6,453 nt of DNA, from IMG/VR virus record IMGVR_UViG_2713896899_000008; one strand, written 5' to 3'. The position numbers and the translations under genes were made by a program. This DNA comes from a virus. Lineage: Duplodnaviria; Heunggongvirae; Uroviricota; Caudoviricetes. Below are positions 4,629-4,976 of the stretch, piece after piece. Each line of letters begins with the position of its first letter. The first letter of the stretch is position 1. Below the pieces are notes generated by a model. It saw only the letters and a list, made by a program, of their open reading frames with translations. It was not told the origin of the DNA and did not search any database.

Positions 4629-4657
4629 TTGCAACATTGATTTCGTAACGTTATTAT
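4629..4657 (+). promoter_or_regulatory. Sigma70-type promoter of the tRNA array (TTGCAA, 17 nt spacer, TATTAT)
   Basis: -35 at 4629-4634 and -10 at 4652-4657; the first tRNA starts at 4667, about 10 nt downstream. Confidence 0.5.
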
Positions 4658-4666
4658 CCTGCACCC

Positions 4667-4742
4667 GGCCCTTTAGCTCAGTGGTGAGAGCGAGCGACTC
4701 ATAATCGCCAGGTCGCTGGTTCAAATCCAGCAAGGGCCACCA
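4667..4742 (+). tRNA. tRNA with CAU anticodon, ileX/ileZ-like (tRNA-Ile2, lysidine type; Met not excluded by anticodon alone)
   Basis: 76 nt cloverleaf: acceptor GGCCCTT/AAGGGCC, D-stem GCTC/GAGC, anticodon loop CTCATAA, T-loop TTCAAAT, A73, encoded CCA. Overall sequence resembles E. coli ileX. Confidence 0.88.
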
Positions 4743-4743
4743 A

Positions 4744-4820
4744 CCGCCACTAGCTCATCAGGAAAGAGCGTCAACCCTTTAAGTTGAGTGTGCGAGGTTC
4801 GAGTCCCCGGTGGCGGTCCA
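4744..4820 (+). tRNA. Atypical tRNA, anticodon loop CCTTTAA (nominal anticodon UUU, Lys)
   Basis: 77 nt cloverleaf: acceptor CCGCCAC/GTGGCGG (C1:G72), D-stem GCTC/GAGC, anticodon stem TCAAC/GTTGA, T-arm CGAGG-TTCGAGT-CCCCG, U73, encoded CCA. C at position 33 and U73 are unusual for a Lys tRNA. Confidence 0.6.
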
Positions 4821-4822
4821 GT

Positions 4823-4898
4823 GCCGACTTAGCTCAGTAGGTAGAGCAACTGACTTGTAATCAGTAGGTCACCAGTTCAATTCCGGTAGTCGGCACCA
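4823..4898 (+). tRNA. tRNA-Thr (UGU)
   Basis: 76 nt: acceptor GCCGACT/AGTCGGC, D-arm AGCTCAGTAGGTAGAGC, anticodon loop CTTGTAA, T-loop TTCAATT, A73, CCA. Closely resembles the E. coli Thr(UGU) tRNA. Confidence 0.88.
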
Positions 4899-4901
4899 TA
4901 T

Positions 4902-4976
4902 GCGGGCATCGTATAATGGCTATTACCTCAGCCTTCCAAGCTGATGATGCGGGTTCGATTCCCGCTGCCCGCTCCA
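4902..4976 (+). tRNA. tRNA-Gly (UCC), glyT-like
   Basis: 75 nt: acceptor GCGGGCA/TGCCCGC, anticodon stem TCAGC/GCTGA with loop CTTCCAA, T-arm GCGGG-TTCGATT-CCCGC, U73, CCA. Matches E. coli glyT as I recall it. Confidence 0.88.

Follow-up and report, generated by a model that had tools for sequence, protein, structure and literature searches.

Four transfer RNA (tRNA) genes stand in a row on the + strand of a 6,453-nucleotide stretch of Caudoviricetes DNA (IMG/VR record IMGVR_UViG_2713896899_000008; the whole stretch is called the window here), in the slot bounded by the late antiterminator gene Q and its terminator on one side and by the lysis genes on the other. ARAGORN places the array at 4667–4976, with the anticodons CAT (4667–4742), TTT (4744–4820), TGT (4823–4898), and TCC (4902–4976); the genes are referred to below as tRNA-1 to tRNA-4. 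The spacers between them measure only 1, 2, and 3 nt, and CCA is encoded at the 3′ end of each gene. All four match the Rfam tRNA family RF00005 at 72.5, 44.4, 73.8, and 64.9 bits (E values of 3.5e-07 to 2.9e-15; gathering score, 29 bits), far beyond chance. Minimum free energy folding of the single tRNAs did not reproduce their cloverleaves and was excluded from the evidence. Together with its promoter, the element runs from 4629, the first base of the −35 hexamer, to 4976, the final base of the glycine gene. An earlier note on this DNA, made by reading the letters alone, had described a prophage-borne array of four tRNA genes with encoded CCA and these minimal spacers, and ARAGORN, Rfam, and the sequence agree with it.

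The array lies in the DNA of a lambdoid prophage. The nearest chromosomal match of the window is an E. coli prophage with 97.2% identity across 1418–6453, in which the Prokaryotic Genome Annotation Pipeline (PGAP) calls tRNA-Ile, -Lys, -Thr, and -Gly, followed by genes for YagU, holin, lysozyme, Rz, terminase, portal, and capsid. Gene order is unchanged in six more contigs that encode an identical YagU protein, and the order Q, tRNAs, lysis genes is shared by L001, L002, L004, L009, and L149–L154 among the loci compared. In the window, Q (3760–4455, +) matches Pfam PF06323 (Phage_antiter_Q, E = 1.3e-91) and is named “bacteriophage antitermination protein Q” in the 97%-identical prophage; relatives have its start annotated at what is window position 3766. 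A DUF968 protein and RusA are encoded upstream of Q and the array. As had been proposed, the same slot holds the ileZ-argN-argO tRNA genes in prophages of the Shiga toxin (Stx) type, and phage 21 carries tRNA-Asn and tRNA-Thr there. The threonine and glycine genes are identical or nearly so to genes of the host operon thrU-tyrU-glyT-thrT, and on that ground the array might be taken for an ordinary chromosomal tRNA operon. This explanation is refuted by context: the similarity to the host operon ends at the mature tRNA termini; tyrU, the 116-nt spacer, thrT, and tufB are absent; and the neighbors of the array are Q, RusA, DUF968, hok/sok, and a holin. The cassette is also present in three records of inducible or sequenced phages (vB_EcoM-606R7, vB_EcoS-689R5, and PhiR47_1; ON470580, ON470583, and PV340566 as a set), and at least 80% of the 441-bp array region is held by only 358 of 5426 complete E. 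coli genomes (6.6%). Neither of the two outcomes that the earlier note had named as fatal, rejection of the genes by tRNA predictors or an origin in a host chromosomal operon, was encountered.

A sigma-70 promoter (4629–4657, +) precedes the array, with the −35 hexamer TTGCAA at 4629–4634, a 17-bp spacer, and the −10 hexamer TATTAT at 4652–4657. A G+C-rich discriminator, CCTGCACCC, lies 3′ of the −10 hexamer, and the first tRNA base, 4667, comes ten bases after the promoter. With 9 of 12 consensus positions matched, the description of this promoter as near-consensus was generous, and in an A+T-rich spacer the promoter scan alone is not significant (four sites against 1.6 ± 1.3 expected per kb). 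The claim that the array has a promoter of its own held up on other grounds, namely conservation across unrelated upstream contexts rather than scan score. From 109 copies of ileZ, the upstream stretches of 120 bases gave 58 distinct sequences with at least six unrelated upstream contexts, in which the Q types differ and, in some, a terminator abuts the −35 hexamer. In all contexts, there is a TTGCA-like −35 hexamer, a 17-bp spacer, a TATTAT −10 hexamer, and a constant distance to ileZ; the most divergent classes have TTGATT or TTACAG as the −35 hexamer and, in one class, CAATAT as the −10 hexamer, with diverged spacer and discriminator sequences. Comparative support for a promoter belonging to the cassette is therefore good. 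An A+T-rich 15-bp tandem duplication (GGTGATTTTTAATCA / GGTGATTTTTGAATG; 4598–4627, +), read from the sequence, abuts the −35 hexamer and is possibly UP-element-like; it is an indel polymorphism, since the relatives L002 and L005 have a single copy. With the G+C-rich discriminator, this duplication appears to give the promoter a resemblance to those of stable RNAs. A promoter-like site at 4890–4917, inside the threonine and glycine genes, is regarded as a chance match because its TATAAT belongs to the glyT D-loop.

Two further elements upstream bear on transcription of the array. An intrinsic terminator, the putative tR′ (4519–4550, +), was found by terminator scan as a G+C-rich stem of 9 bp with eight consecutive U after it; it folds at −26 kcal/mol (z = −2.86), and 1 of 200 shuffled sequences was as stable. 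A putative late promoter pR′ (4439–4467, +; TTGCAA, 17 bp, TATATT) matches 9 of 12 consensus positions in the scan and overlaps the end of Q, and we infer its assignment from a position like that of the curated pR′ of phage 21. In a lysogen, the cassette would be transcribed from its own promoter. After induction, Q-antiterminated read-through from pR′ across tR′ would add transcripts from a template at high copy number; such Q-dependent read-through is expected because the curated layout of phage 21 (Q, pR′, tR′, tRNAs, holin) matches that of the window. Downstream of the array, no terminator was found within the window; a hairpin at about 5082–5125 was considered and is no better than shuffled sequence (z = −0.47). 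As for processing, RNase P by itself separates E. coli operons whose spacers are about as short, valV-valW among them (PMC2190699, PMC4176162). Spacers of 1–3 nt are too short for the customary RNase E sites, which suggests that the cassette too depends on RNase P only. RNase P would cut the precursor at each mature 5′ end, leaving trailers of 1–3 nt that exonucleases would trim to the encoded CCA.

Three of the four genes can be assigned to tRNA species without difficulty. The first, tRNA-1 (4667–4742, +; Rfam 72.5 bits), is called tRNA-Ile by PGAP and is the equivalent of ileZ, a tRNA-Ile2 with the anticodon CAU that reads AUA. The isoleucine type proposed for this gene is borne out by an identity of 68/76 to K-12 ileX versus 54/78 to metT, and by the acceptor pairs C4-G69 and C5-G68, which it shares with ileX, whereas metT has U4-A69 and A5-U68. 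These two pairs are the TilS determinants that distinguish Ile2 from tRNA-Met, and lysidine conversion of CAU and reading of AUA are accordingly expected features of a gene of this type. A single base separates tRNA-1 from the ileZ of the Stx-type array. The third gene, tRNA-Thr(UGU) (4823–4898, +; Rfam 73.8 bits), is a copy of thrU that reads ACA (and ACG). It is identical to K-12 thrU at 75 of 76 positions, the sole difference being G57A in the T-loop, and other copies of the array carry thrU exactly. The fourth, tRNA-Gly(UCC) (4902–4976, +; Rfam 64.9 bits), is an exact copy of K-12 glyT (75/75) and reads GGA (and GGG). Both had rightly been described as near-copies of host tRNAs, and both derive from one host operon, thrU-tyrU-glyT-thrT. 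Three bases, TAT, stand between the phage threonine and glycine genes in place of tyrU and of the host spacers of 8 and 116 nt. Since the similarity of thrU and glyT ends exactly at the mature tRNA termini, CCA included, the two could, on an unlikely reading, have been captured by way of processed tRNA intermediates and not from genomic DNA.

The two acquisitions differ in how widely they are found. Ile(CAU) and Gly(UCC) are also paired in phage and prophage arrays of Yersinia, Hafnia, and Edwardsiella, where the glycine gene is identical to E. coli glyT at 71–74 of 75 positions and in several cases carries a compensated U5-A67 pair. From these related arrays in other genera, the glycine gene reads as an old and selected member of the cassette. 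Thr(UGU) was seen as a cassette member only in the E. coli arrangement. Rearranged cassettes in other Enterobacterales (L008 3002–3303, from Yersinia phage YeP1; L084, L100, L102, and L137) have Ile(CAU) and Gly(UCC) 2–5 nt apart with an argN-family gene before or after them, and the loops of that gene are non-canonical (CAUUGCC, CAUUUAA, CAUAUAA, or the 8-nt CAUAUUAA).

The second gene, tRNA-2 (4744–4820, +), is a non-canonical member of the argN family with the anticodon UUU, called “Lys” by ARAGORN and tRNA-Lys by PGAP. It is identical to a phage tRNA-Arg(UCU) subtype at 69 of 77 positions, to Stx-phage argN at 62 of 78, and to host lysT at 47 of 79, and its anticodon stem UCAAC/GUUGA is exactly that of the phage Arg(UCU) subtype. 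Relative to this arginine tRNA, the loop has undergone U33C and C35U (CUUCUAA to CCUUUAA), the T-stem carries U63C and with it an A51·C63 mismatch (CGAGG/CCCCG versus the fully paired CGAGG/CCUCG), and the discriminator shows A73U; the first pair is C1-G72. Arginine identity depends chiefly on C35, and A73 plays a part in that of lysine. The acceptor stem (7/7), D-stem (4/4), and anticodon stem (5/5) are fully paired, and position 33 of the loop C32-C33-U34-U35-U36-A37-A38 is C in all 38 window-type arrays examined. A cloverleaf is thus recognized, and the purine of position 37 is there (A37), but the U33 and the fully paired T-stem of a canonical elongator tRNA are missing. Judged as an E. 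coli tRNA-Lys, the gene has the UUU anticodon but neither A73 nor descent from lysT, and it is not argN, tRNA-Arg(UCG), since the body is homologous but the anticodon has changed. The label “UUU-type” was therefore right about the anticodon, and the gene so labeled is no normal tRNA-Lys but a former arginine tRNA with C33, a mismatched T-stem, and U73. U33 is a conserved base of bacterial tRNAs and enforces the U-turn required for ribosome binding, and U36-A37-A38 is a determinant of the N6-threonylcarbamoyladenosine (t6A) modification (PMC13276492).

The distribution of tRNA-2 argues for decay. It occurs in 793 of 5426 E. coli genomes (about 15%), and 279 copies are at least 99% identical to it; further lesions are present in 519 of 798 copies, counts that clonal O157 sampling inflates. 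The lesions fall into two classes, a 1-nt D-stem deletion with C70U (in the O157-type prophage PPompW) or C4U, U8C, and C11U together. Sampled copies with lesions are left unannotated by PGAP while the neighboring Ile, Thr, and Gly genes are still annotated, and tRNA-2 is annotated only at 99% identity or above. On this comparison, it seems somewhat probable that tRNA-2 is vestigial, a phage tRNA-Arg(UCU) in origin whose arginine identity (C35U) and U-turn nucleotide (U33C) have been lost, and most likely the gene would be a weak lysine decoder at best, with no share in codon supplementation. Three observations speak against a vestige. The Rfam score of tRNA-2 equals that of canonical argN (44.4 bits each). 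Its loop keeps U36-A37-A38 and differs from that of host tRNA-Lys only at position 33. Finally, the diversity of tRNA-2 does not exceed that of the glycine gene: it has 8 segregating sites versus 2, 4, and 7 in its neighbors (7 in the glycine gene), in an underpowered relative-rate comparison of 38 arrays. An inefficient yet working lysine tRNA is accordingly possible, though distinctly less likely than a vestige, and a specialized role for tRNA-2 is improbable.

Relatives of tRNA-2 extend beyond the cassette. The anticodon stem stays paired in more distant relatives with loops such as CAUUUAA, CAUAUAA, CAUUGCC, and AUUUUAU. This kept pairing is the only informative part of what looks like a conserved body with a hypervariable anticodon arm; the rest of that pattern is partly an artefact of a search in which the acceptor stem and T-arm were fixed. 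A near-identical 78-nt tRNA-like element stands alone in chromosomes of Enterobacter, Scandinavium, Citrobacter, and Pseudescherichia (L133–L136, L138–L140, L144, and L145), with the acceptor stem of tRNA-2 (CCGCCAC/GUGGCGG) and the loops AUUUUAU, AUUUGAU, or AGUUUAU. These stand-alone Enterobacterales relatives were considered as canonical UUU tRNAs and rejected, as the Rfam tRNA model failed at E ≤ 0.01 on the copies scanned (L133 and L139) and one copy, in Citrobacter OP27, lies among housekeeping genes (GNAT, metallo-beta-lactamase-fold, and aldehyde dehydrogenase genes). The 78-nt element may be a relic or the remnant of an attachment site, and a record of it labeled Chryseobacterium is probably contamination.

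A rival model is counter-defense: the cassette would carry spare tRNAs to replace those cut by defense nucleases, with the threonine gene answering P2 OLD, which targets Thr(UGU), and tRNA-2 acting as a nuclease-resistant lysine decoder on an arginine body against PARIS AriB and PrrC, which target Lys(UUU). P2 OLD, the classic excluder of lambda, works by cuts in host tRNA-ThrU(UGU) that fall at paired CNG motifs of its anticodon stem (PMC12445682). Phage tRNA-Thr(UGU) genes rescue from OLD, including that of the lambdoid phage 21, which lies in the same slot, but resistance needs both an altered CNG motif and a shortened stem, and over-expressed host ThrU protects little or not at all (PMC12445682). 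The threonine gene of the window shares the UGU anticodon with the OLD-resistant Thr6/Thr21 type but not the altered motif and shortened stem. Its anticodon arm is identical to that of thrU (ACUGA/UCAGU), with a full-length stem and with C28-U-G and C40-A-G intact, whereas the protective threonine tRNA of phage 21 is unrelated to it and differs from thrU at 26 of 76 positions. Across 38 arrays, the threonine and glycine genes have no segregating site in the anticodon arm. Because the thrU anticodon arm is unchanged and no array variant alters it, the threonine copy is predicted to be OLD-sensitive, and a counter-defense role for it is unsupported.

For tRNA-2, the same proposal draws on the UUU anticodon, on a stem (UCAAC/GUUGA) that is unrelated to that of lysT and free of the paired CNG motifs used by OLD, and on the recurrence of UUU anticodons across several lineages of the family. 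The gene nevertheless has neither U33 nor A73 and its T-stem is mismatched, so that decoding and charging are doubtful, and most E. coli copies carry extra lesions. No known nuclease, moreover, connects Ile2 with Gly(UCC). With the decoding of tRNA-2 in doubt and decay in many lineages, counter-defense is a minority reading and an unlikely one. Less likely still is a combined version, in which an arginine body was retooled to decode lysine (UCU to UUU), its foreign stem and non-U33 loop evading the lysine-tRNA nucleases, so that the cassette would serve both supplementation and counter-defense; the nucleases evaded would be PARIS AriB and PrrC, with slower cleavage by OLD, all from P2/P4-type elements, and this too is a long shot.

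The cassette has a modular build, in which a single promoter and ileZ lead into Arg-Arg, UUU-Arg, or UUU-Thr-Gly. Viral contigs were scanned with a pattern built from the acceptor stem and T-arm of tRNA-2, and 120 hits were sampled. About 36 of the 120 have the arrangement Ile-1-UUU-2-Thr-3-Gly (numbers are spacer lengths in nt), and about 57 have the Stx-type arrangement Ile-7/9-Arg(UCG)-13-Arg(UCU). The array is thus a frequent and already-annotated feature; no paper on this four-gene arrangement was found in the literature collection searched. A mosaic Ile(CAU)-UUU gene-Arg(UCU) array is seen in the PPompW prophage of E. coli EH2252 (L005 1670–1745) and in the LC5678xx phage records. The UUU gene occupies the argN slot there and argO is kept; this UUU copy has a 1-nt D-stem deletion and C70U and is not annotated by PGAP.

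Such mosaics raise the question of whether the cassette is a neutral passenger, in which identical tRNAs (the ileZ, thrU, and glyT copies) serve as recombination anchors and the extra copies are harmless, with no measurable benefit. Mixed arrays such as the Ile-UUU-Arg(UCU) of PPompW are in keeping with this, as are the decay of tRNA-2 in many lineages and the single substitutions scattered over every cassette gene, among them U8C, A9C, and G3A. The flanks are unrelated between contexts while the cassette is near-invariant (diversity of about 0.34 versus 0.0015–0.0099), which fits mosaic junctions at the cassette edges, although the flanks are unsuitable as a neutral control, being non-homologous mosaic DNA next to an ileZ that may itself anchor recombination. 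Conversely, the promoter hexamers and their spacing are kept across diverged contexts, and hundreds of genomes have intact, annotated copies of the Ile, Thr, and Gly genes. Stem changes are compensated, both in the glycine gene of E. coli arrays (C6-G66 to U6-A66) and in the Yersinia-type glycine gene (G5-C67 to U5-A67). All cassette anticodons read A-ending codons, three of which are minor codons enriched in cargo genes. A purely neutral passenger is rather unlikely on this evidence.

Codon usage was compared, per 1000 codons, between genes annotated in the 97%-identical prophage and a reference region from K-12. Ordinary host genes use AUA, ACA, GGA, and AAA at 5.1, 8.1, 7.3, and 32, and host ribosomal and elongation factor genes at 0.4, 3.6, 2.0, and 55. 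The corresponding values are 6.6, 10.6, 12.4, and 29 in late structural genes of the prophage; 8.7, 16.7, 13.5, and 46 in its early genes; 25.5, 20.4, 33.2, and 51 in the morons adjoining the array; and 30.0, 18.2, 12.3, and 39 in the morons for type III secretion system (T3SS) effectors at the prophage end. For the YagU-like region of the window, the − strand open reading frames (ORFs) 5140–5982 and 5979–6209, which contain the 187-aa gene, were pooled (42% G+C), giving 31.1, 31.1, 25.4, and 42. Enrichment of AUA, ACA, and GGA is thus 2- to 6-fold in the A+T-rich moron and effector genes, about 2-fold in early genes, and 1.3- to 1.7-fold in late structural genes. AAA shows no enrichment in this comparison, nor is it a rare codon. 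On the side of supply, thrU and glyT are single-copy in the host and Ile2 comes from ileX and ileY, whereas K-12 has five lysine tRNA genes in one operon. Because AUA, ACA, and GGA are enriched and AAA is not, codon supplementation is plausible for three of the four genes (Ile2, Thr, and Gly). Their products would raise the level of scarce host tRNAs for the A-ending codons AUA (after lysidine formation by TilS), ACA, and GGA, and A+T-rich early, moron, and effector genes would profit from this more than the bulk of the structural genes. The suggestion that the array supplements late or moron gene expression is thereby narrowed: the signal is strong for morons and effectors and moderate for early genes, late structural genes contribute little, and the part concerning lysine is unsupported.

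Taken together, the evidence makes it probable that the array is a mobile late-region tRNA cassette of a lambdoid prophage, a variant of ileZ-argN-argO that would supplement minor codons and in which tRNA-2 is vestigial; its functional steps are deduced from sequence comparison. Several points weigh against this interpretation. Late structural genes are weakly enriched, and each moron set comprises few codons (354–1864). A bias toward A-ending codons is general in A+T-rich foreign DNA and is present whether or not tRNAs matter. The codon test, furthermore, describes a 97%-identical relative and not the complete prophage of the window itself.

The remaining features of the window are those of a lambdoid mosaic. 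The first 1417 nucleotides (1–1417) do not align to the best-matching prophage and match other E. coli prophages, as is typical of lambdoid mosaicism; a 135-aa ORF at 450–857 has no Pfam match. A hok/sok type I toxin-antitoxin locus (1576–1750, +) is identified by the Rfam sok model at 115.3 bits, overlapped by a 70-aa Hok/Mok-like ORF (1688–1900) that is hokD in relatives. A moron block (4977–6417; 43.8% G+C), very rich in AUA, ACA, and GGA and read from the opposite strand, separates the tRNA cassette from the holin. It encodes a YagU-family (DUF1440) inner-membrane protein of 187 aa (5140–5703, −; Pfam PF07274, E = 8e-38; YagU family protein in a relative), which is indexed in 601 blocks of a public collection, and a 76-aa ORF (5979–6209) without a Pfam match. 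The cassettes of L002, L006, and L009 have no YagU gene, and the holin comes directly after them. In the window, the start of an S21-like class II holin (MKSMDKLTTGVA...; 6418–6453, +), seen in the sequence and its translation, is cut by the window end; it corresponds to essD in L001 and the PF04971 holins in L149–L154. The prophage of the closest relative (L131 1056–7650, E. coli 377323_2f) ends in T3SS effector genes for EspJ, an EspF-repeat protein, NleC, a HECT-type E3 ligase, and NleG, a block with 40% G+C and 30 AUA per 1000 codons. In Stx-type loci, the small RNA STnc100 (Rfam RF02076, 90–102 bits) lies downstream of or beside the tRNA genes (L004 2633–2805, L037 7958–8145); it is not in the window.

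tRNA genes downstream of Q are known in Stx and other lambdoid phages, and the window adds no new principle to them. The finding is an ordinary one, of specialist interest for its copies, trimmed to the mature ends, of two host tRNAs that share an operon and for a widespread C33 “tRNA-Lys.” Temperate coliphages can carry exact copies of thrU and glyT, which offers a natural test of minor tRNA dosage for A+T-rich cargo such as T3SS effectors and other morons. The former arginine tRNA with UUU and C33 occurs in roughly one complete E. coli genome in seven, and pipelines are inconsistent in calling it tRNA-Lys. Should tRNA-2 be charged and take part in translation, it would rank among the rare natural tRNAs able to function without U33 and could be a counter-defense element; if not, it is a cautionary case for annotation. 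The threonine copy, being predicted not to protect against P2 OLD, would make a simple negative control for recent work on OLD.

Several known systems resemble parts of the cassette. With the host thrU-tyrU-glyT-thrT-tufB operon, it shares both the threonine and the glycine gene at the identities given above, and it differs in the 3-nt gap that stands for tyrU and its spacers, in its promoter, and in having no host flank. Like valV-valW, leuQPV, and the tRNA cluster of phage T4, it combines very short spacers with encoded CCA and a predicted separation by RNase P (PMC2190699, PMC4176162); unlike them, it has in tRNA-2 a member that begins with C1-G72, and its processing is deduced. tRNA-2 also recalls the nuclease-evading tRNAs, namely T5 tRNA-Lys against PARIS, T5 tRNA-Tyr against retron Eco7, and loop variants (PMC10264068), in presenting the targeted Lys-UUU anticodon on a stem-loop unlike that of the host. 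Those tRNAs have a canonical U33 loop and are demonstrably functional, whereas tRNA-2 has no U33 or A73 and is decaying in many lineages, and the likeness is only a lead. Phage 21 has the same order of Q, pR′, tR′, tRNAs, and S21-type holin and also carries a Thr(UGU) beside its tRNA-Asn. Its tRNA-Thr21(UGU) is, however, a diverged phage-type tRNA with an altered CNG motif, a shorter stem, and OLD resistance shown by experiment (PMC12445682), whereas the threonine gene of the window is a host copy.

The closest counterpart is the ileZ-argN-argO module of 933W-type Stx phages, for which codon compensation has been proposed (PMC7946995). The two have in common the position downstream of Q, pR′, and tR′, the promoter, an ileZ with one difference, an argN-family gene in second place, and the rationale of reading minor A-ending codons. 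They differ in the spacers (7–9 and 13 nt in Stx phages, 1–3 nt in the window), in the second gene (Arg-UCG in Stx phages, UUU in a C33 loop here), in argO (Arg-UCU), which is replaced here by the thrU and glyT copies, and in what follows, a YagU-family moron in the window in place of the stx genes. The claim that the set of tRNAs differs from ileZ-argN-argO is thus correct for the replacement of argO by Thr and Gly and does not extend to an independent origin, given the same promoter, the same ileZ, and an argN-family gene in the second slot. With the location, ileZ, and promoter of that family but without argN and argO themselves, the cassette of the window is, judged by homology, a variant of ileZ-argN-argO and not a strict member of it.

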